Below, piece by piece: positions 5,483 to 64,000 of a stretch of 64,000 nucleotides of DNA. This DNA comes from an uncultured Phycisphaerales bacterium. Lineage in GTDB: Bacteria; Planctomycetota; Phycisphaerae; Tepidisphaerales; Tepidisphaeraceae. The notes under the pieces were generated by a model, which made no database searches, was not told where the DNA came from, and saw only the letters and a list, made by a program, of their open reading frames with translations. Both the position numbers and the translations under genes were made by a program. The stretch is from positions 224,001 through 288,000 of the forward strand of contig CAWJPJ010000008.1 in NCBI GenBank assembly GCA_963844715.1. The letters run 5' to 3'. The first letter of the stretch is position 1; every line of letters begins with the position of its first letter.

Positions 5483-5564
5483 GGATCGTAGTTGATATTC
5501 GTGCCGGCCCCTCACCCTAGCCCTCTCCCCGAGTACAGAGAGAGGGGATAAGAGGGCGCGCGGG
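5483..5564. repeat. CCCCTCACCC hairpin (REP-like) repeat, extended module
   Basis: gcccctcaccctagccctctccccgagtacagagagagggg; near copy with flanks at 24594..24675. Confidence 0.85.
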
Positions 5565-6739: not shown

Positions 6740-6825
6740 AAGTGAGGCGAGGCATATATTACTCGAAGTGCGTTGGTTGGTCCGACAGTAGATATAACTG
6801 AAAAAGGACGGGGTTTGAAAGGACC

Positions 6826-7099
6826 GCCCCTCATCCTGCCCTCTCCTTGGAATACTGGGGGAGGGGAAAAGCGCAAGGGACGCGGTTAGAGGGGATTGCC
6901 CCTCACCCTTGCCCTCTCCCCGGAGTACCGGGGAGAGGGGAAAAGAGCGCAAGGGATGCGGTTAGAAATAACGGCCTCTCACCTCGCCCACCGTGCCGGA
7001 ACCAAAGGCGGGGGAGAGGGGAAAATACTGAAGTAGGGCGCGGTTAGAGAAGACTGCCCCTCACCCTAGCCCTCTCCCCGGAATACCGGGGCGAGGGGA
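6826..7099. repeat. Tandem cluster of four CCCCTCACCC hairpin repeats with shared linker
   Basis: Units start ~6826, 6898, 6974, 7056; linkers end in GCGGTTAGA. Confidence 0.85.
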
Positions 7100-7103
7100 C
7101 AAG

Positions 7104-9326
7104 ATGGAAAAAAGAGCCAAATCTTCGAAGCACTCGCATTTCTGGCGGGCTTGTCGGTATTTGCTGCCTTATCGCATATATATAGCGATCTCGATTGTTT
7201 GCGCATTTTTTGTGGGTCTTACTTTGGCTTCGGGGCTGGGGGCGTTGCTGCCGTTGCTGCGGGTTTTGATTAATGGGGATAGTTTGCAGGGGTGGGCGTA
7301 TCGGCAGACGGCGGAGATGCGGCTGGGGGTTCATTTTCAGCAGGACCCGGGGATCGTTCAGATTGTTCAGATTACCAACAAGAGCGGAGGGGCCGCTGGC
7401 GCGGGGTTGAAGCCGGGGGTTGTGATTGAAGGGGCTGATCTTCCGCCGGATGCGCCGCCCAGCCCGTTTCCGGGTAGGGATTCGGATCCGGCGTATAAGG
7501 CTGGGGAGATTCTTCGGCGGATAGCGCGGGGGGGTGCGGGGTCGACTCATCTCATTATTGGGGGAGAATCCGTCGCGGTGCGGCTCAAGACGCCGGGGTG
7601 GTTTGGATTGGCGAAGGTGGGGTTGAATCTGGTTGATGCGCTGCCGGTGCGGCCGGTGGCGGCGGTGGCGGCGGTGTTTGGGATTATGGCGGTGCTGGCG
7701 ATCACGGGGCAGTGCTTTCGATTTTTTCAGGAATATCTTTCGGACGAAGTGGGGATTCTGGCGGTCAACGACATGCGGCGGCAGCTTTATGATCGGGTGC
7801 TGCGCGTTCCGATGCAGTTCTTTGGGCAAAAGGGGACGAGCGACATTACGAGCCGATTGGTGAGCGACGCCTCGACGTTGCAGGACGGTTTCAAGCAGGT
7901 TTTGGGGCAGAGCATTCAGGAGCCGATCAAGGCGATCATGGCGTTGGGGCTGGCGCTGATTTTGAGCTGGCAACTGACGGTGTCGATCGTGGTGTTCTCG
8001 CCGATCATGGTGATCATCGTGCGGAAGTTCGGGAAGAAGATGCGGCGAGCCAGCCGGGCGGCTTTGCAATCTTCTTCGGTGATGCTGGGGCAACTTGAGA
8101 GCACGCTGATGGGGATTCGGGTGGTGAAAGCCTCGGGGGCGGAACGATACGAGCGGCGGCGGTATATGCAGATCATGGGGAACCTGATTCGCGAGCAGTT
8201 GCGGATGAGCCGGACGGATGCGCTGAGCGCGCCGGTGCTGGAGACGGCGATCATGCTGATGATGGGGTGCGTGGTGCTGCTGGCTACGAAATTGGTGGTG
8301 GCGCATTCGATTACGGCGAACGATTTTCTGGTGGTGATGGGGTCATTGGCGGTGATCGCGGAATCTTTGCGGCGGGCCAGCAAGGTGAGCAATGCGCTTC
8401 AGAAAGCTAATGCAGCGGCGGGGAGGATTTTCGAGACTTTGGAGTTGCCTGTGGAGAGGGAGGATCGGAAGAGAGTGGGGGGTCGCGCCCCGCAAGCGGG
8501 GCCGCTAATGGGGGGGGAGGGGTTGCGGCGGAAGTTGCCGGTGTTGAGTTCTTCGATTTTGTTTGAGGGGGTCACGTTTGGGTATGGGAATGTCAGCGCG
8601 CCGGCGGTGGATCGCGTGGATTTGCGGGTACCTAAGGGGCAGAGCGTGGCGATCGTGGGGCGCAATGGGAGCGGGAAGACGACGCTGTTGGCACTGCTGC
8701 CGCGGTTTTATGATCCGCAATCGGGGCGCATTACGATTGACGGGCAGGATATTCGGACGGTTACGCTGGCGTCGCTGCGGAAACAAATCAGCATTGTCAC
8801 GCAGGACAGCGTGATATTTCCGGGGACGATTGCGCAGAACATCGCGTATGGAAATCCGATGGCGGCGCCGGATGCGCCGGCCACGGATGGGCGGGCGGTG
8901 CTGATGATGGAAATCGAAGACGCGGCGCGGCGGGCGTTTGCGCATGATTTTATTATTGAAAAGCCGCAGGCTTATCACACGCCGCTGGGGGAGCTGGGCG
9001 GGCAATTGTCGGGCGGGCAGAAGCAGCGGCTGTGCATCGCGCGGGCGATTTTGCGGAAGAGCCCGATTCTGATTCTGGACGAAGCGACCAGCCAGGTGGA
9101 CGCGGAGAGCGAACATCTTATTCAGCAGGCGACCGAGTCGCTGATGCATGAGCGGACGACGTTTGTGATCGCGCATCGGTTCAGCACGATTGTGTCGGCG
9201 GATACGATCGTGGTGATGGAGCGCGGGCGCGTGGTGGGGCAGGGGAAGCATGAGGATTTGCTGCGGAGTTGTGAGACTTATCAGCAGCTTTATGAGCGGC
9301 AGCTTTTTGCGACTACCGCTAAGTGA
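7104..9326 (+). CDS. ABC exporter fused permease/ATPase (MsbA-like)
   Basis: ABC membrane domain, Walker A GRNGSGKT, LSGGQKQR, ILILDEAT, IAHR. Confidence 0.93.
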   Translation: MEKRAKSSKHSHFWRACRYLLPYRIYIAISIVCAFFVGLTLASGLGALLPLLRVLINGDSLQGWAYRQTAEMRLGVHFQQDPGIVQIVQITNKSGGAAGAGLKPGVVIEGADLPPDAPPSPFPGRDSDPAYKAGEILRRIARGGAGSTHLIIGGESVAVRLKTPGWFGLAKVGLNLVDALPVRPVAAVAAVFGIMAVLAITGQCFRFFQEYLSDEVGILAVNDMRRQLYDRVLRVPMQFFGQKGTSDITSRLVSDASTLQDGFKQVLGQSIQEPIKAIMALGLALILSWQLTVSIVVFSPIMVIIVRKFGKKMRRASRAALQSSSVMLGQLESTLMGIRVVKASGAERYERRRYMQIMGNLIREQLRMSRTDALSAPVLETAIMLMMGCVVLLATKLVVAHSITANDFLVVMGSLAVIAESLRRASKVSNALQKANAAAGRIFETLELPVEREDRKRVGGRAPQAGPLMGGEGLRRKLPVLSSSILFEGVTFGYGNVSAPAVDRVDLRVPKGQSVAIVGRNGSGKTTLLALLPRFYDPQSGRITIDGQDIRTVTLASLRKQISIVTQDSVIFPGTIAQNIAYGNPMAAPDAPATDGRAVLMMEIEDAARRAFAHDFIIEKPQAYHTPLGELGGQLSGGQKQRLCIARAILRKSPILILDEATSQVDAESEHLIQQATESLMHERTTFVIAHRFSTIVSADTIVVMERGRVVGQGKHEDLLRSCETYQQLYERQLFATTAK

Positions 9327-24593: not shown

Positions 24594-24675
24594 GGATCGC
24601 AGATGGTTTTCGTGCCGGCCCCTCACCCTAACCCTCTCCCCGGGTACAGGGAGAGAGGATAAGAGAGTGCGCGGA
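24594..24675. repeat. CCCCTCACCC hairpin repeat, extended module
   Basis: Matches 5483..5564. Confidence 0.85.
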
Positions 24676-41155: not shown

Positions 41156-41640
41156 GACCCTTCGAGTTGCCTCAGGGCAGGCACGCTTCGCGAGAGCCGT
41201 CGAGCAGATGATCGGTTAAGCAGGAGGGGAGACGGCCCCTCACCCTTCCCTCTCCCCGAGTACAGGGCGAGGGTACAAATGCGAAAATGCCGCTCATCGT
41301 CCGGCGGAAACTAGCGGGGGCACGGGGAGAGGTGATTAGTCGCCATTCTGTTGTTACGCTTTTGGGGAGGTTTCTAGGTTTGCGTCCTTAGCGGTGTGCT
41401 CCCACGGCAGCGCCGTGGGCGTTCGGGGGACCTTCGCTGGAAAGGGCGTGGTATATGTTGTCAATCCGGTAGTGCGAGCACGTCTAGAAACTAGAAGCTA
41501 GAAGCTGGCGGTGTCGCATAGCACGTCAATGGTTCTAGAGGCTAGAAGCTAGGTGCTAGAACCTAGGAGCTAGAGACTAGAGGCTAGAACGGGACCGATT
41601 AGTCGCACTAAGCTAGAAGCTGGAAGCTAGAGCCTGAAGA
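41156..41640. repeat. Intergenic mosaic: CCCTTCG..CTCAGGG hairpin, CCCCTCACCC repeat, CCCACGGC palindrome, CTAGAAG arrays
   Basis: ~41156 gacccttcgagttgcctcagggc; 41235..41273; 41401 cccacggcagcgccgtggg; 41484..41632 ctagaag units. Confidence 0.8.
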
Positions 41641-47145: not shown

Positions 47146-47252
47146 GGCCCCTCACCCGCGCTGCGCGAGAATAGTGGAACGGTGGAACAGTCGAGCAGGA
47201 GGGAAGGCTGCCCCTCACCCGGCCTCTCCCCGTGAGTACACGGGGAGAGGGG
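47146..47252. repeat. CCCCTCACCC hairpin repeats (one partial, one complete)
   Basis: cctctccccgtgagtacacggggagagg perfect stem. Confidence 0.85.
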
Positions 47253-47268
47253 TAAGAGGGGAAGATTG

Positions 47269-53900: not shown

Positions 53901-54077
53901 TACACCCTATCCTTAAGCGGCGGTGGTTGAAGACCTTGGATTGTAATTAACGCAACATTACTCCGCAAAACAAAAAGTCTTCACACCCCATTATTCTTCG
54001 GCCGGAAGGGTTGGGGGATCAAGGTGGCGGAAAACAAGTGTGGTTTTTCGGCGGAACGCTCTTCGATCCCCGCAGCC

Positions 54078-54146
54078 CCCCTCCCATCGTGCCGAAACCA
54101 GCGGAAGGGGGCAGGGGGTGCTCCCCCGGAGTACCGGTAGAGGGGA
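54078..54146. repeat. Hairpin-repeat variant with CCGAAACCAGCGGAAG insert
   Basis: Near-identical to 16836..16903. Confidence 0.8.
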
Positions 54147-55102: not shown

Positions 55103-56029
55103 ATGGCGGGGCGTGTCTTTATTACCGGCGGGAGCGGATTTGTGGGGTCGGCCGTGGTCGGGGAGCTGGTCGGGCGCGGGTATGGGGTTAATGCGCTGGT
55201 GAACCGCAGGACGATAGCGGCGGGGGAAAATGTTCGGTTGATCCAGGCGAGCGTTTTTGACGGGGGGGCGCTGGATGAGGGGATGACGGATTGTCAGGCG
55301 GTGATTCATCTGGTGGGGATCATCATGGAGAAGCCTGGGGAGGGGATTACATTTCAGAAGATGCATGTGGAGGCGACGCGATGGGTTGTGGAGGCGGCCT
55401 GGCGGAAGGGGGTTCGGCGGTATGTGCATATGTCGGCGCTGGGGACGGGGGCGGAGGCGATATCGGATTATCACAAGACTAAATGGCGAGGCGGAGGAGC
55501 TTGTGCGGGGGAGCGGGTTGGATTGGACGATTCTCAGGCCGTCGGTGATTCATGGGGCGCGGGGCGAGTTTATGAAGATGGTGGCGGGGTGGGCGCAGGG
55601 GGACGAAGCGCGCCGTTTTTTTTCATGCCTTATTTTGGGAAGGGGTTGCTGGGGCGCGGGGGGGCGGGGTTGGTGCAGCCGGTGTATGTGGAGGATGTGG
55701 CGCGGGCGTTTGTGGATTGTTTGGAGAATCCTCGGACGAGCAAGAAGAGTTATGATTTGGTTGGGGCGGAGAGGATAACCTGGCCGGAGATGTATGGGAT
55801 TGCGGCGGAAAAGTTTGTGGGGAAGAAGAAGGCGGCAGTGGGGATTCCGGTTTGGTATGCGAAGTTGCTGACGAGGATTTTGCCGGGGGGGATGCTGCCG
55901 TTTAATCGGGATCAGGTGATTATGAGCGGGTTGGATAGTGTGGGGGATGGGGAGGGGTTTGAGAAGGATTTTGGGTGGAAGGGGCGGGGGTTTGCGGAGA
56001 CGTTGTCGGAATATTCTTATGGGATGTAA
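55103..56029 (+). CDS. NAD-dependent epimerase/dehydratase (NDUFA9-like SDR)
   Basis: TGGSGFVG, HLVGI, HMSALG, Y...K, QPVYVEDVA. Confidence 0.88.
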   Translation: MAGRVFITGGSGFVGSAVVGELVGRGYGVNALVNRRTIAAGENVRLIQASVFDGGALDEGMTDCQAVIHLVGIIMEKPGEGITFQKMHVEATRWVVEAAWRKGVRRYVHMSALGTGAEAISDYHKTKWRGGGACAGERVGLDDSQAVGDSWGAGRVYEDGGGVGAGGRSAPFFFMPYFGKGLLGRGGAGLVQPVYVEDVARAFVDCLENPRTSKKSYDLVGAERITWPEMYGIAAEKFVGKKKAAVGIPVWYAKLLTRILPGGMLPFNRDQVIMSGLDSVGDGEGFEKDFGWKGRGFAETLSEYSYGM

Positions 56030-56553: not shown

Positions 56554-56757
56554 CTAGAAACTAGAAACTGGAAACTAGAAACTAGAATTCCGAGTCAAAC
56601 CTGAATGACCGAATGTCTGAGTAGTTCGCACTTCGTGATCAAGCGACGATCTTTTGCGATGGGGCGATGTTCTTTCTTCGAGCGCGGCCCCTCACCCTTG
56701 CCCATTCTGCGGAAACTGGCGGAGGCACGGGGGGAGGGGATAAGAGGTCGCGCGGGT
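56554..56757. repeat. CTAGAAA heptamer module plus CCCCTCACCC repeat variant
   Basis: ctagaaactagaaactggaaactagaaactagaa; gcccctcaccc...gggataagaggtcgcgcggg. Confidence 0.8.
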
Positions 56758-59313: not shown

Positions 59314-59356
59314 ATCGGGTGGGGGGCGGGTTGCAAATTGACGGCCTGGGGGGGCG

Positions 59357-59431
59357 GAAATCCGAAACTAGAAACCCGAAACTAGAAACCCGAAACCCGA
59401 AACAAGCCCGAATGCCCGAATGACTGAAATG
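59357..59431. repeat. GAAACC composite module, left of protease gene
   Basis: gaaatccgaaactagaaacccgaaac...aagcccgaatgcccgaatgactgaa. Confidence 0.85.
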
Positions 59432-59472
59432 GCTATAATAGGCTTCGCGGTATCTTGAGACTGGAGTTTATC

Positions 59473-59910
59473 ATGATCGCTGAACGGGAGAAGTCGATGG
59501 GGCGGTTTTCGGTAGAAGTGGATTTGGCGAACCACAAGGACCTGATTCTTGCCGAGGCGGGCGTCATTCCACCGGATCGAATACGACGGGTGCGCGTGCG
59601 TGGGGTCGTCGATACCGGCGCAGCCCGACTTATCATTCCGGGGTCGGTCGCACAGCAGCTTGGGGTGGATAGTTCCGGCACTGCAATGGTTCGGTATGCG
59701 GACGGACCCACGGCCGATCGCTTAATCGTCAAAGACGTGCATCTGACATACGGGGGACGAGAGAGCGTCTTCAACGCGATTGTTGAGCCGGATCGGGATT
59801 CGATTTTGATTGGGGCGATTGTGCTGGAAGATTTGGATTTTCTGGTGGATTGCATCGGGCAGCGGTTGGTGCCGCGCGATCCTAAGCAGATTGTTTCGGA
59901 AGCAGAATGA
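59473..59910 (+). CDS. Clan AA (retroviral-like) aspartic protease; alternative start 59497
   Basis: VDTGA catalytic motif, ADG flap, LIGAIVLE.LD..VD. Confidence 0.88.
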   Translation: MIAEREKSMGRFSVEVDLANHKDLILAEAGVIPPDRIRRVRVRGVVDTGAARLIIPGSVAQQLGVDSSGTAMVRYADGPTADRLIVKDVHLTYGGRESVFNAIVEPDRDSILIGAIVLEDLDFLVDCIGQRLVPRDPKQIVSEAE

Positions 59911-59913
59911 GGG

Positions 59914-60162
59914 GAAACCAGAAACCAGAAACCCGAAACCCGAATCAAGCCCGAATGCGCGAATGACTGAATGTTTAACTGGGGTGGCGGCCGGCGGGGT
60001 TCGGGACGCCGTGAATGACTAATGACGAATGATAAATGACGAATCAATGGTCGAATGATTGAATGACCGAAAGGGCCATTTCGTCATTTGGACCCGCCAC
60101 GGCGGATGCTGGCGCACATTCGGGTTTGATTGGGGATTCTGGTTTTGGGCTTCGGGTTTCCG
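59914..60162. repeat. GAAACC module, AATGAC array and inverted GAAACC module
   Basis: 59914..59973, 60013..60071, 60076..60162 (reverse). Confidence 0.85.
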
Positions 60163-60168
60163 CCGCGG

Positions 60169-61282
60169 TTATTTGATCTGGACTTCTTTTCCGGCGGCGG
60201 CGGATCTGTAGACGCCGTCTAGAATTTTCTGCACGGCCAGGCCGGCTTCGCCGGGGGCGCGCAACGGTTTGTTGTACAGGCAGGCGTCTGCGAAGTTTCT
60301 TAGTTTTAGGTCGAAGAGATAGGCGAAGTCTGTGCGGGGGCCGATGTAGGCGGGGGATTCGTTGACCAGGTGGGCGGCGCGGTCGGTGAAGATTTGGGGC
60401 GGGTCCCATTGGCAGCCGCCTTTTTCGCCCATGGCGGTGTAGTTCCAGACGTCTTCCTTGATGTGAGCGGCGAAGGAGGCTTCGATTTGCATGATGGCGC
60501 CGGTGTCGAAGCGGATTTGGGCAATGGCGAGGTCTTCTACGGTGTAGGTTTTATAGTCCCAATTGGGCCACATGGAGGAGACGTTGCTTTTTTTGTTGCC
60601 GAGGTAAGTCCAGGTGTTGGCGCTGGCGGCGACGGGGTTGGGGGAGCCTAGAAGGTCGTGGGCCATTTCGATGACGTGGACGCCGATGTCGATCATGGGG
60701 CCGCCGCCTTGGAGTTTTTTTTGGCCGAAGACGCCCCAGTTGGGGATGCCGCGTCGGCGGAGGGCCTGGCATTTGACGAAGAGGATTTTTCCGAAGCGGC
60801 CTTCGTCGCGGGATTGTCGTAGATATTCTGAATTGGGGTGGAAGCGGTATTGGAAGCCTACGGCGAGTTTGCGTTTGGATTTTTTTGCGGCGGCGATCAT
60901 TTTTTCGCATTGAGCCGGGTTCATGGCCATGGGCTTTTCTACGATGACGTGGGCAGCCGGCGAGGAGGGAGTCGATCGTCGGCTCGACGTGCAAGGCGTT
61001 GGGGGTGCAGACGGCGACGGCGTCGGGGGCGTCTTGCTTGAGCATCTGCTGCCAGTGCTCGTGGAGATTTTGGATGCCGAATTTTTCTTTCATTACCTTC
61101 AAGCGGTCGGGGTTGGGGTCGACGGCGGCGATGGCTTCTACGTCGGGCATCGATTGGAGGGAGCGGAGGACGGTTTCGGAGATTCCGCCGCAGCCTATTA
61201 TTGCTATCCGCAGTTTTCTGCCCGAATGTTTTTGGGCTTTGGGGGAGGCGAGAGATTCTGTTGAGACACTTTTTTCGGGCAT
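60169..61282 (-). CDS. Gfo/Idh/MocA oxidoreductase (frameshifted)
   Basis: IAIIGCGGI, CTPN..H, GGG.MIDIGVH, VEDLA. Confidence 0.92.
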
Positions 61283-61304
61283 TTTGGGCTCGGAGAAAAG
61301 AAAT

Positions 61305-61758
61305 TTTGCCACAGATGTAAATCAGATGGACACAGATGAAAATGCGAATTCACTCATTTTTTGAAGCGTTTTACCTCTACTTTTCTTGCGAAATTGATCA
61401 GGAGGCATAGGGGCATGCCGGTTGCGGCGAGATAGTTGAGGCATTGGGCGGTGTGGGCATCGTCGAGGGTTCTTACTGCTTTCAATTCGACGAGGATTTT
61501 TCCCTCGACGATCAGGTCGGCCAGATAATCGCCTACTACGACGCCGTCATAAATGACGGTGATATTCTTTTGCTGTTCGACGCGCAGCCCGGCTTTTCGC
61601 AATTCATGCACCATGGCGTTCTCATATACCCGCTCGGCAAATCCGCAACCCAGGACGTTGGCAACTTTATAAGCACAACCAATGATCTTCTCGGTTATCT
61701 CATTCAAATCTTCATGGTTTGTATTATCTGTGTCCATCTGATTTATATCTGTGGCAAA
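61305..61758. mobile_element. Putative inverted-repeat-bounded GxxExxY element
   Basis: 33-bp inverted repeats 61305..61337 and 61726..61758 (32/33 identical) enclosing one gene. Confidence 0.6.
61354..61737 (-). CDS. GxxExxY protein (PD-(D/E)XK nuclease-like)
   Basis: LGCGFAERVY, ADLIVEGKILVELK, AQCLNYL, LLINF. Confidence 0.93.
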   Translation of the reverse strand: MDTDNTNHEDLNEITEKIIGCAYKVANVLGCGFAERVYENAMVHELRKAGLRVEQQKNITVIYDGVVVGDYLADLIVEGKILVELKAVRTLDDAHTAQCLNYLAATGMPLCLLINFARKVEVKRFKK

Positions 61759-61767
61759 GAATACATT

Positions 61768-64000
61768 TCATTTCAGCTTCGCCAGTTCGGCTTCGGCCGC
61801 GGCTAGTTGGTCTTGGGTTTGTTTGACCAGGTGCGGCGGGGCTTTGGCTGTGTAGGATTCGTTGGCGAGGCGGGCTTTTAGGGTTTGGATGGTTTTCGTC
61901 AACTCTTCGCGGCGCTTGGCGGTTCGCTCTTCTTCGGCGCCTTTTTCGATTAGTGATCTCATGAAGATGTCGCAGCGGCCGGCTCGGGTGGATATCAGGG
62001 CGGCGTTGGATTGCTTTAGTTCCGCGTGTGTTTTGATTGCGCAGACGGCCAAGTTTTCGATCAGGGGGATCGCGTCTTGAGAGAGGGAGTCGGAGTCGTT
62101 CACGGGGACGATCGCGGCGTCGACGCTCTTTTTGGCGTCGATCTGTTGGGCGTTTTTCATTTCGCGGATGGTGGAGATGATTTCCTGGAGACGAGCGAAG
62201 GGTTCGAGAGATTCCTGGTCGATTTGGCCGGGTTTGGGCCAGGGGGCGCGGATGAGGCGGTGGCCGGGTTTGTAATCGGGGGCGGGGCGGGTTTCGTTGA
62301 GGCGGCTCCAGATTACCTCGGTGATGAAAGGGATCATGGGGTGCATGAGGCGGAGGGAGCCGTCGAGGATTGTGGCGAGGATGTTTGAGGTCTGGCCGGC
62401 GGCGGCGGGATCCTTTAGCGCGGGCTTGGCGGCTTCTACGTACCAGTCGCAGAAGTCGCCGTAGAAGAAGTCGTAACAGATTTTGGCGTATTGGTCGAAA
62501 CGATAAATTTCCAGGGCGGCGTTGGATTCCTGGACGGCGCGATTGAAGCGGGAGACGATCCAGCGGTCGGCCAGGGTCCATTTGGTCGGGTCGGGATTTT
62601 CGGGGGGGATTTTTTCCAGGTTGGGGATGACGAAGAAGTTGGCGACTTGCCAGATTTTGTTGCAGAAGCGGGAGCCGAGGTCGAATTTGTCGGAGGTGTT
62701 TCGGCCCTGGGCGTCGCGCTTGACGGGCATGCGGACGTCCTGGGTTTCTGTGGCCATGTGAGTGAGGGTGAAGCGGAGGGCGTCGGCGCCGTGGGTTTCG
62801 ATGACGTCGACGGGGTCTACGCCGTTGCCTTTGGATTTGCTCATGCGCTCGCCGTGGCCGTCGAGGATGGTGGGGTTGATGGCGACGTGGAAAAAGGGGA
62901 TTCCGAGTTCCTTTCCCCTCTCCCTGTCTTCCGATAGTTTCGGCACGAGTGGGTGAGGGGCGGTCTGCGCATTTCCGGCGGTCTGCCCCTCACCCCCACC
63001 CTCTCCCAGAGTACTGAGAGAGGGAGTAAGAGGGGGGCGGTGGCCCATGTTGTACATGCCGGTCATGACCATTCTGGCGACCCAGAGTGTGATGATGTCT
63101 CGGCCGGTGAGGAGGACGCTGGTGGGGTACCATTTTGCTAAATCCGGAGTCCGGTCGGGCCAGCCTAGTGTGCTGTGGGGCCAGAGGGCACTGGAAAACC
63201 AGGTGTCTAGGACGTCGGGGTCCTGTCGAAAGTTAAATGTTTCCTCTAAAATTCTCTCGATATCCTCGTGCCCGGGCGGAACGCACATGAAGCATTCCTT
63301 CTTTCCCTCGGTTTGCATCAGGATCGTAGGGATTTCGACACCGTTTATCGCGTGACCCTTAAGGATCCCTGATTCGCCATCGTTGTGCAAAAGAAAGTCC
63401 CTAAGGCCATATTGAGCAAAGGTGCCGCGCCACACCGGAATCCGATGGCCCCACCAGAGTTGTCTGGAGATTGGCCAGTCGCGTTTTTCGCCTAGCCAAC
63501 TTAGATACTGTTGCGCGTGGCGTTCTGGGAAGAATTTTATTGTGCCGTTGCGGACGACCTCGAGGGCGGGCTCGGCGAGGGGGGCCATTTTTACGAACCA
63601 TTGGTCGCTTAGGTAGGGTTCGACGGGGGTTTTGCTGCGGTCGCTGTGGCCTACTTGGGTTTCGTAGGGTTCTTCTTTTTCTAAGAGGCCCAGGGCCGTC
63701 AGGTCTTCGACGACTTTTTTTCTCGCGTGGTCTCGTTTCATTCCTGAATACGCGCCGGCGTTTTGGTTTAGGGTGCCGTCCGGGTTGAGGATGTTGATGA
63801 GGTCGATCTGGTCGGGTTTGTTTTGGTGGCGTTGCCAGACTGCGTAGTCGTTGGGATCGTGGGCGGGGGTGACTTTGACGACGCCGGTGCCGAATTTTGG
63901 GTCGACGAGGATGTCGTCGGCGATGATGGGGATTTTTCTTTCTGTGAGGGGGAGCTTTACGGATTTGCCTATGGCCCAGTTCCAACGCGGGTCTTCGGAA
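61768..64000 (-). CDS. valS: Valine--tRNA ligase (5' end outside window)
   Basis: GTGVVKVTPAHDPND, DWPISRQLWWGHRIP, DVLDTWFSS, RMSKSKGN, FCDWYVE, C-terminal coiled arm. Confidence 0.97.
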   Translation of the reverse strand, partial: SEDPRWNWAIGKSVKLPLTERKIPIIADDILVDPKFGTGVVKVTPAHDPNDYAVWQRHQNKPDQIDLINILNPDGTLNQNAGAYSGMKRDHARKKVVEDLTALGLLEKEEPYETQVGHSDRSKTPVEPYLSDQWFVKMAPLAEPALEVVRNGTIKFFPERHAQQYLSWLGEKRDWPISRQLWWGHRIPVWRGTFAQYGLRDFLLHNDGESGILKGHAINGVEIPTILMQTEGKKECFMCVPPGHEDIERILEETFNFRQDPDVLDTWFSSALWPHSTLGWPDRTPDLAKWYPTSVLLTGRDIITLWVARMVMTGMYNMGHRPPLTPSLSTLGEGGGEGQTAGNAQTAPHPLVPKLSEDRERGKELGIPFFHVAINPTILDGHGERMSKSKGNGVDPVDVIETHGADALRFTLTHMATETQDVRMPVKRDAQGRNTSDKFDLGSRFCNKIWQVANFFVIPNLEKIPPENPDPTKWTLADRWIVSRFNRAVQESNAALEIYRFDQYAKICYDFFYGDFCDWYVEAAKPALKDPAAAGQTSNILATILDGSLRLMHPMIPFITEVIWSRLNETRPAPDYKPGHRLIRAPWPKPGQIDQESLEPFARLQEIISTIREMKNAQQIDAKKSVDAAIVPVNDSDSLSQDAIPLIENLAVCAIKTHAELKQSNAALISTRAGRCDIFMRSLIEKGAEEERTAKRREELTKTIQTLKARLANESYTAKAPPHLVKQTQDQLAAAEAELAKLK
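62902..63042. repeat. In-frame pair of CCCCTCACCC hairpin repeats inside valS
   Basis: gggtgaggggc...gcccctcaccc inverted pair plus ccctctcccagagtactgagagaggg; 141 nt = 47 codons. Confidence 0.88.

Follow-up and report, generated by a model that had tools for sequence, protein, structure and literature searches.

How does an essential enzyme come to carry what looks like a mobile DNA repeat inside its coding frame? The question is raised by valS, the gene for valyl-tRNA synthetase (ValRS), in a stretch of 64,000 nucleotides (the window; assembly GCA_963844715.1, contig CAWJPJ010000008.1, positions 224,001 to 288,000) from an uncultured Phycisphaerales bacterium, a soil planctomycete of the family Tepidisphaeraceae. 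The explanation that we regard as probable, taken as a whole, is that a non-autonomous doublet of a BoxC-type repeat lies in a tolerant loop of ValRS and is translated there.

The window holds the 3' three quarters of valS (61768-64000, minus strand; TIGR00422, 945.5 bits against a cut-off of 612.1). The start lies past the window's end, and the entire gene (G000:C8:285768-288701) encodes 977 aa. The score exceeds the NCBIfam valS cut-offs, the catalytic motifs (a HIGH-like HLGH and RMSKS) are unbroken, the closest named homologs are Tepidisphaeraceae proteins, and tblastn found one copy of valS in this genome, which is 85% complete. The first-pass annotation of the window had reported 47 in-frame residues between YNMG and IPF, at a point where ValRS normally has a residue or two. 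We confirmed an insert of 47 codons, His554 to Gly600 (62902-63042, minus strand; 141 nt, stop-free), flanked by ...YNMG and IPF. Empty-loop relatives have one residue at the site, so the net gain is 46 codons. The site aligns to the turn M507-G508-E509-R510-P511 (MGERPF) of Thermus thermophilus ValRS (1gax) and, by this alignment, is a surface turn at the N-terminal end of the strand running to the KMSKS loop. From textbook geometry and the same alignment, we take the turn to lie at the edge of the Rossmann sheet, on the far side from the active site. A look-up in the ESM Atlas gave no model of this ValRS, just class I synthetase look-alikes below 0.9.

The insert is built of two opposed repeat copies. 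In the direction of the mRNA, it starts with copy 1, a canonical BoxC/TM-type repeat that is reversed relative to the mRNA (62982-63034, plus strand; nhmmer E 8.4e-11) and is read as PLTPSLSTLGEGGGEG. A spacer of ∼25 nt (62961-62985) follows, between inward-facing CCCCTCACCC ends that pair around it, and then copy 2 (62911-62960, minus strand), which belongs to a variant subfamily and is read as PHPLVPKLSEDRERG. The last residues are a Glu-Leu-Gly cap (62902-62910, minus strand). The insert transcript is predicted to fold more stably than shuffled sequences (-70.6 kcal/mol, z -3.8), into a single closed multibranch structure whose ends lie close together.

Both copies are related at the DNA level to repeats dispersed through the genome, as the first-pass annotation had supposed. 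The word CCCCTCACCC occurs 123 times in the genome, against 9 to 24 times for four rearranged words. A profile built from 75 seed copies recovered 168 non-redundant copies at E<0.01 and none in the reversed genome; with 28 sites that carry only the variant, the genome has 196 repeat loci. The unit measures ∼50 bp and occurs singly or in pairs, with spacers of 7 to 65 nt. Copy 1 (E 8e-11) ranks 77th of the 168, at the median score, a ranking that is partly circular since copy 1 fits the seed pattern; by plain blastn, it is 86 to 88% identical over 41 to 51 nt to other copies in the genome. The earlier description of two opposed copies of one repeat was right about the orientation and about copy 1 and needs amending for copy 2, which the profile missed: copy 2 retains CCCCTCACCC and GGGAGAGGGG, and its C-rich arm and loop are replaced. 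It is 93.75% identical over 48 nt to C7:794972-795018. An exact pattern for this variant subfamily gave 31 matches in the genome, none in the reversed control, none in 60 relatives, and 17 in three further Phycisphaerales-titled assemblies (L045-L061). In the database ValRS closest to ours (P0006), the same loop carries a variant-matching peptide. A looser variant pattern allowing 3 mismatches was discarded (46 matches against 64 in the reversed control). A long form, in which the variant unit continues into a second canonical hairpin, was seen at G000 C6:135755, C6:1095773, C6:1081659, C7:1379758, C8:302320, C8:331119, and C8:446501.

BoxC is an orphan repeat known since the 1990s. Our profile matches Escherichia coli TMECO #9 at E 1e-9, and copy 1 contains, with one mismatch, the three blocks CCCTCNCCC / GGGNGAGGG / GGGNGAGGG of BoxC/TMECO, which allow at most one stem mismatch. 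The first loop of TMECO is 3 to 6 nt long, and that of copy 1 is 8 nt. Accordingly, the strict TMECO consensus had no match in the genome and 65 matches once the loop was widened to 3-14 nt. Copy 2 is without the C-rich arm of TMECO. Judged by these motifs, the repeat is a long-loop relative of BoxC/PIT/TMECO and not TMECO proper. TMECO/BoxC/PIT has been described as an intrastrand-triplex repeat (Holder et al. 2015, PMC4666352), and a ViennaRNA fold of our repeat gives just the hairpin part of the motif. In E. coli K-12, five inverted BoxC/TMECO pairs have been reported, and the motif is described as deletion-prone (PMC4666352).

The arrangement of the copies points to a partner gene. Among the 46 pairs of copies less than 150 nt apart in the genome, 29 have the reverse-then-forward layout of the insert, 1 has the opposite layout, and 16 are tandem. 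Nine further pairs lie 150 to 700 nt apart; the three with the reverse-then-forward layout are exactly the three DUF559 genes of the genome, with a spacing of 369 to 403 nt (the one on C7 is frameshifted, and the one on C4 is intact and encodes 141 aa). A BoxC-DUF559 cassette thus has a reverse copy upstream and a forward copy downstream of the gene, empty doublets occur elsewhere, and the spacer of a doublet holds the position that the gene holds in a full cassette. Taking the top-scoring DUF559 locus of each of 29 relatives, we found the repeat on both sides in 25, on the downstream side alone in 1, and on neither side by profile in 3; of 56 control windows, 0 had a hit. Over 140 genomes, 52 had both repeat and DUF559, 9 DUF559 only, 30 the repeat only, and 49 neither, counts in which kin are not independent. 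Several synthetases also contain full cassettes that are read in frame; one of these enzymes is a ValRS (P0141), with the cassette at a loop ∼30 residues upstream of ours. In E. coli K-12, a degenerate BoxC copy forms the end of the DUF559 gene ycjD, with TMECO #9 ∼170 nt downstream (L225, NC_000913.3:1351204-1351430). YcjD has been related to Vsr (PMC1189080). Judged by layout, the insert doublet is the shell of such a nuclease cassette minus its gene. We found no paper linking DUF559 to BoxC in a search judged by titles and the openings of abstracts, which most subscription journals and the supplement of Holder et al. on flanking genes lay outside; the words "nuclease" and "planctomyc" do not occur in the main text of PMC4666352.

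We then compared the loop across the family, an alignment that the first-pass annotation had proposed. In 141 genomes searched, 130 had a ValRS hit whose site was fetched, and 125 were parsed with frame-independent anchors, the other 5 lacking an anchor. The loop was empty in 63 loci, had 12 extra nt in 1, and had at least 15 extra nt in 61, this genome included; 17 loci contain BoxC and 44 other inserts, many of them unrelated repeats. By eye, the non-BoxC fills comprise REP-like (repetitive extragenic palindromic) inverted pairs, heptamer arrays, and a conserved type of 25 aa; labels such as GTAG-REP for some of them are putative. In genus g18 alone, the loop was found empty, with BoxC, and with two other fills. 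Loops with at least 15 extra nt were stop-free multiples of three in 59 of 61 cases, across 37 distinct lengths. One locus comes from an unpublished genome (G004), which gives one row (+8 aa) to counts and trees and on which no conclusion hangs. Because a set of 120 database homologs was retrieved with the insert-bearing query, the share of filled loops in it (116 of 119) is biased, and we drew no frequency from it. The database entry P0020, named Fontivita pretiosa, is among those with a filled loop. Other short units were seen nested within BoxC copies in the database loops P0013, P0014, and P0038 and in G153.

Loop content does not follow the enzyme's descent. The sister ValRS (G001; joined at 99* in a 28-row tree) has an empty loop, yet 24 strict copies and a DUF559 gene occur in its genome, behavior that supports the earlier proposal of a mobile repeat. 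The five BoxC carriers in the 28-row tree were rejected as a single clade (approximately unbiased test, p-AU 3e-154), and a 73-row tree forced at least 10 changes for BoxC presence. The flanks of G000 and G002 are similar, as a single insertion common to both might leave them; the trees group G000 with the empty G001 instead. The 73-row tree and a 68-row tree used below are FastTree trees of 420 and 212 columns, respectively, and are weakly resolved; G146 and G097 were too short for trees. Pairs of ValRS that are 87 to 91% identical over about 950 to 1010 aa (best high-scoring segment pair only) have unrelated loops (P0002/P0037, P0055/P0081, and P0045/P0090). The comparison presents the ValRS loop as a tolerant landing pad, refilled by unrelated repeats faster than the enzyme diverges.

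One host residue varies with the content of the loop. The residue before [ILV]PF is Gly in none of the 64 empty loops, in 15 of the 16 BoxC loops that keep the frame, and in 16 of the 43 in-frame loops with other fills. Within the clade that carries the YN motif, Met549 (63055-63057, minus strand), which lies shortly upstream of the insert, accompanied 29 of 32 Gly-capped loops and none of the 38 others. This position stands alone among about 137 columns (p 1e-16; next column 3e-4), and 6 independent pairs on starred branches agree in direction (median p 0.03). The covariation test left out G150 and G146, and the paired test left out G150 and G117 (68 rows kept). Two readings suit the covariation equally: the cap may pack on Met549, or a short tract may be converted as a unit.

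ValRS has other places where length varies. A second variable segment (window about 63230-63430, residues about 425-490) is longer than in 1gax and unrelated to that of P0006, whose own segment looks like the one in the more distant P0095. This stretch of ValRS may be a further exchangeable loop. Three ValRS loci (L063 in G007, L067 in G026, and L071 in G056) have long in-frame inserts in other loops, which, judged by motifs, look Y1/RAYT-transposase-like with flanking REP-type peptides.

From these observations, we propose that the insert would be a non-autonomous doublet of a BoxC/TMECO-type repeat, composed of a reverse copy, a short spacer, and a forward copy. Such doublets would be copied to new sites, most likely helped by DUF559 in trans, as RAYT does for REPINs; we lean slightly toward DUF559 as the agent that moves empty doublets. 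One doublet would have landed in, or overwritten, the surface turn of ValRS and would persist as the frame was kept, being read as a loop that is rich in Pro and Gly and probably disordered. Because 59 of 61 inserts keep frame, translation of the segment is probable; this pattern also argues for the earlier claim of new protein sequence in an essential enzyme, and we hold translation as a disordered loop to be highly probable. The insert would be harmless because the turn presumably sits at an edge of the sheet that faces away from the active site. Loop content would be close to neutral, and the Leu-Gly end together with host Met549 may form a stable local allele that accommodates inserts; the correlation is observed, and its cause is what we infer from it. 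A broader picture, which we offer tentatively and think doubtful as it stands, would make BoxC the terminus of a mobile element that relies on a Vsr-like nuclease instead of a transposase, with empty doublets moving in trans; the ValRS loop with Met...Leu-Gly would be a short allele converted between relatives and overwritten by successive repeats, a homing-like slot in an essential enzyme that needs no splicing.

Several observations weigh against parts of this proposal. E. coli ycjD has no upstream copy, and TMECO #9 is reversed. DUF559 was absent from this loop in all 125 family loci (largest extra, 354 nt) and in the 119 parsed database homologs; the doublet therefore probably arrived already empty and need not be the relic of a local cassette. 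Free-standing cassettes usually contain stops in their flanks, hence read-through is not built in. Two loops, in G152 and G150, are out of frame; both have lower completeness and short open frames, and sequencing error is the likely reason. The apparently homologous 25-aa insert was also rejected as a clade (p-AU 0.002), and loss or recombination therefore contributes to the scatter; in the trees, gain is not separable from loss. Finally, the K-12 motif is described as always intergenic and unlinked to mobile elements (Holder et al. 2015, PMC4666352).

The main rival accepts the same translated, tolerated loop and has the doublets spread by host processes (template switching at stalled forks, repair, or gene conversion), with DUF559 as a captured passenger. 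Two further points that count against our proposal speak for it: 30 of the 82 repeat-positive genomes had no strong DUF559 hit, and no target-site duplication, as expected of a miniature inverted-repeat element (MITE), was found at the junctions, where the longest shared word averaged 3.9 nt in a locus's own pairs and 4.0 nt across genomes (31 loops, possibly too old). A shared host route would also explain why one loop receives heptamer arrays as well as several REP-like families, and effects of the triplex on replication and repair have been proposed (Holder et al. 2015, PMC4666352). Against this rival, the flanking of DUF559 is specific (3 of 3 here, 25 of 29 in relatives, and 0 of 56 controls), DUF559 is the only gene between opposed copies 150 to 700 nt apart in the genome, and incomplete genomes make the absence of DUF559 weak evidence. 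We consider spread by host processes unlikely. A domesticated loop, whose mRNA hairpin or Pro/Gly linker would tune ValRS translation, folding, or partner binding so that the host retains some insert, could account for the stable transcript fold, for inserts in about half of the family, and for the Leu-Gly cap and Met549 being kept despite a changing interior. We judge it improbable, since 64 of 125 loci, the sister gene included, have none or almost none, and the inserts range from 6 to 118 extra codons with no sequence conservation among close relatives.

The preferred reading, a translated BoxC doublet, also has to be set against removal of the segment and against artefact. Removal at the RNA level (splicing or ribosome bypass) or at the protein level (intein-like) would suit the closed fold with neighboring ends. 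Precise removal does not need stop-free, in-frame inserts, which 59 of 61 are; an Rfam scan of 61000-64000 found no intron family, its two hits falling below the gathering score and away from the insert; the insert ends (His...Gly before Ile) lack intein residues; and exact excision leaves one residue fewer than the empty allele has. Removal is in our view very improbable. A last alternative is that the whole insert, or just the replaced middle of copy 2, is an assembly or base-calling artefact; the first-pass annotation had named an assembly artefact as a ground for rejection. The assembly does contain split frames, the variant pattern is found in 0 of 60 relatives, and the 17 collection matches of the variant stem from just three assemblies. 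On the other side, record 8 of run X1 spans 62589-63033 and record 16 of run X2 spans 62963-63113, each with 0 other letters and 0 gaps. No single listed record crosses the full insert; jointly, these contigs from two samples cover both junctions, and X1 record 8 covers copy 2. All 4 runs belong to one study, and X1 is possibly the assembly's own sample; runs X3 and X4, whose shares are small, were left out of any reading of habitat. No RNA holder is listed for the locus, which points neither way. In addition, BoxC occurs in the same ValRS loop in sixteen relatives, and in P0006, a JGI record and at 83.8% identity the nearest ValRS in the database, the loop contains a peptide that matches the long variant. 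Because two samples' contigs match without differences, an assembly artefact is very unlikely, to the point of being negligible. The suspicion that the variant was a long-read artefact was dropped on the run contigs and the P0006 peptide.

Elsewhere in the window, the repeat occurs nine more times: a plus-strand intergenic copy at 5506-5556; copies at 6822-6874, 6894-6949, 7051-7107, 24617-24668, 41231-41283, and 47206-47256; an intergenic copy of the variant subfamily at 54075-54121 (plus strand); and a second variant-like copy at 56686-56748. Six lie outside crude gene calls, making the earlier count of about ten intergenic sites a fair one. The copies at 6822 and 6894 fall within the 5' extension of an open reading frame (ORF) whose true start, in our reading, is likely further downstream, and the copy at 56686 falls within a doubtful 113-aa frame. 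Genome-wide, 27 candidate frames span a copy, of which 21 were scanned. In six other host genes, Pfam domains match on each side of the copy or surround it; these genes encode alanyl-tRNA synthetase, TsaD, a DnaE2-like polymerase, a MOSC oxidoreductase, and two TPR proteins. Probable further in-frame hosts are a type ISP enzyme, an aminotransferase, and a ketoacyl synthase. In several further candidate frames, the copy precedes the likely start. The majority of copies are noncoding.

Next to valS, on its downstream side, lies a GxxExxY gene (61306-61760; TIGR04256, 142 bits) with inverted CCACAGAT...ACACAGAT repeats on both sides; we take GxxExxY to be another nuclease-like family. There are 19 such units in the genome and none in the reversed control, and one pair is gene-less (C6:1098731/1098809). 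This unit follows the same logic of repeat-gene-repeat and empty doublet as BoxC-DUF559, with a different repeat. An ORF resembling a clan AA aspartic protease (59455-59910, under NCBIfam cut-offs) lies between two similar heptamer-based repeat blocks (window 59350-60080); run contigs skip 150 to 159 nt at 59957/59966-60117 with other letters between, and possibly stem from other organisms or repeats. An oxidoreductase-like gene (60169-61312) is split across two frames, and a run contig is one base shorter at 60955 (depth 2.2). Run contigs are also one base shorter at 55489 and 57464, two positions at which further ORFs seem to be frameshifted, and the assembly probably retains residual single-base insertions.

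Beyond the initial description of the insert, the analysis adds the BoxC/TMECO type of the repeat, the mirrored DUF559 cassette, the variant subfamily of copy 2, and the refilling of the loop by unrelated repeats. DUF559 becomes a candidate mover for BoxC, a repeat whose origin the 2015 study did not settle; the idea is testable in a laboratory strain, as E. coli K-12 has ycjD with a neighboring TMECO. More than 60 inserts at a single turn of an essential enzyme form a natural series, one class of which is tracked by a host residue, and with this series the accommodation of junk-derived sequence by a protein can be tested directly.

In-frame repeat inserts are already known, and a single one is unsurprising. 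The Rickettsia palindromic element (RPE), cited as a precedent by the first-pass annotation, is a palindromic unit of ∼100 to 150 bp found between genes and in frame in conserved genes, and an RPE-bearing guanylate kinase is translated and active (PMC10969869, PMC2229807). The analogy is fair, as our repeat likewise has intergenic copies and in-frame insertions in conserved genes, and does not extend to membership. Contrasted by description, an RPE is one 105- to 150-bp stem-loop that has inverted repeats at its ends and a conserved peptide, whereas here two short opposed units enclose a variable spacer, are read in several frames, and have a candidate nuclease partner. Intragenic GTAG/CGTC REP dimers have been reported in frame in tRNA synthetases, DnaE2, and other proteins, most often in Opitutus terrae, a member of the Planctomycetes-Verrucomicrobia-Chlamydiae group (PMC3733652), and their neutrality in loops was proposed (Di Nocera et al. 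2013, PMC3733652); "Valyl" has no hits in 4 supplementary files of that paper. Those REPs carry an unpaired end tag, and neither tag was seen by eye in our profile consensus or in 25 seed rows. In genes of the same category, they are usually described at differing sites (PMC3733652), whereas here many families strike one ValRS loop. Inteins and self-splicing introns differ from the insert in their end residues and intron RNA fold, by sequence reading and the Rfam scan. BoxC/TMECO of K-12 is described as intergenic, whereas the repeat studied here is also coding, flanks DUF559, and has a variant subfamily. In the REPIN-RAYT system, two inverted repeats enclose a short, diverse spacer, and the non-autonomous element has a low-copy partner gene flanked by the same repeats (PMC8049555). 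Our doublets share this build, with a short variable spacer enclosed by inverted copies (29 pairs are reverse-then-forward and 1 is the opposite); the genes between opposed pairs 150 to 700 nt apart are DUF559 genes and not RAYT (Y1 HUH) genes, so that the putative mover would be a PD-(D/E)XK/Vsr-like nuclease instead of an HUH tyrosine transposase. Taken together, these comparisons place the insert outside RPE, GTAG/CGTC REP, RAYT, and strict TMECO membership and suggest that it works like an intragenic REPIN.

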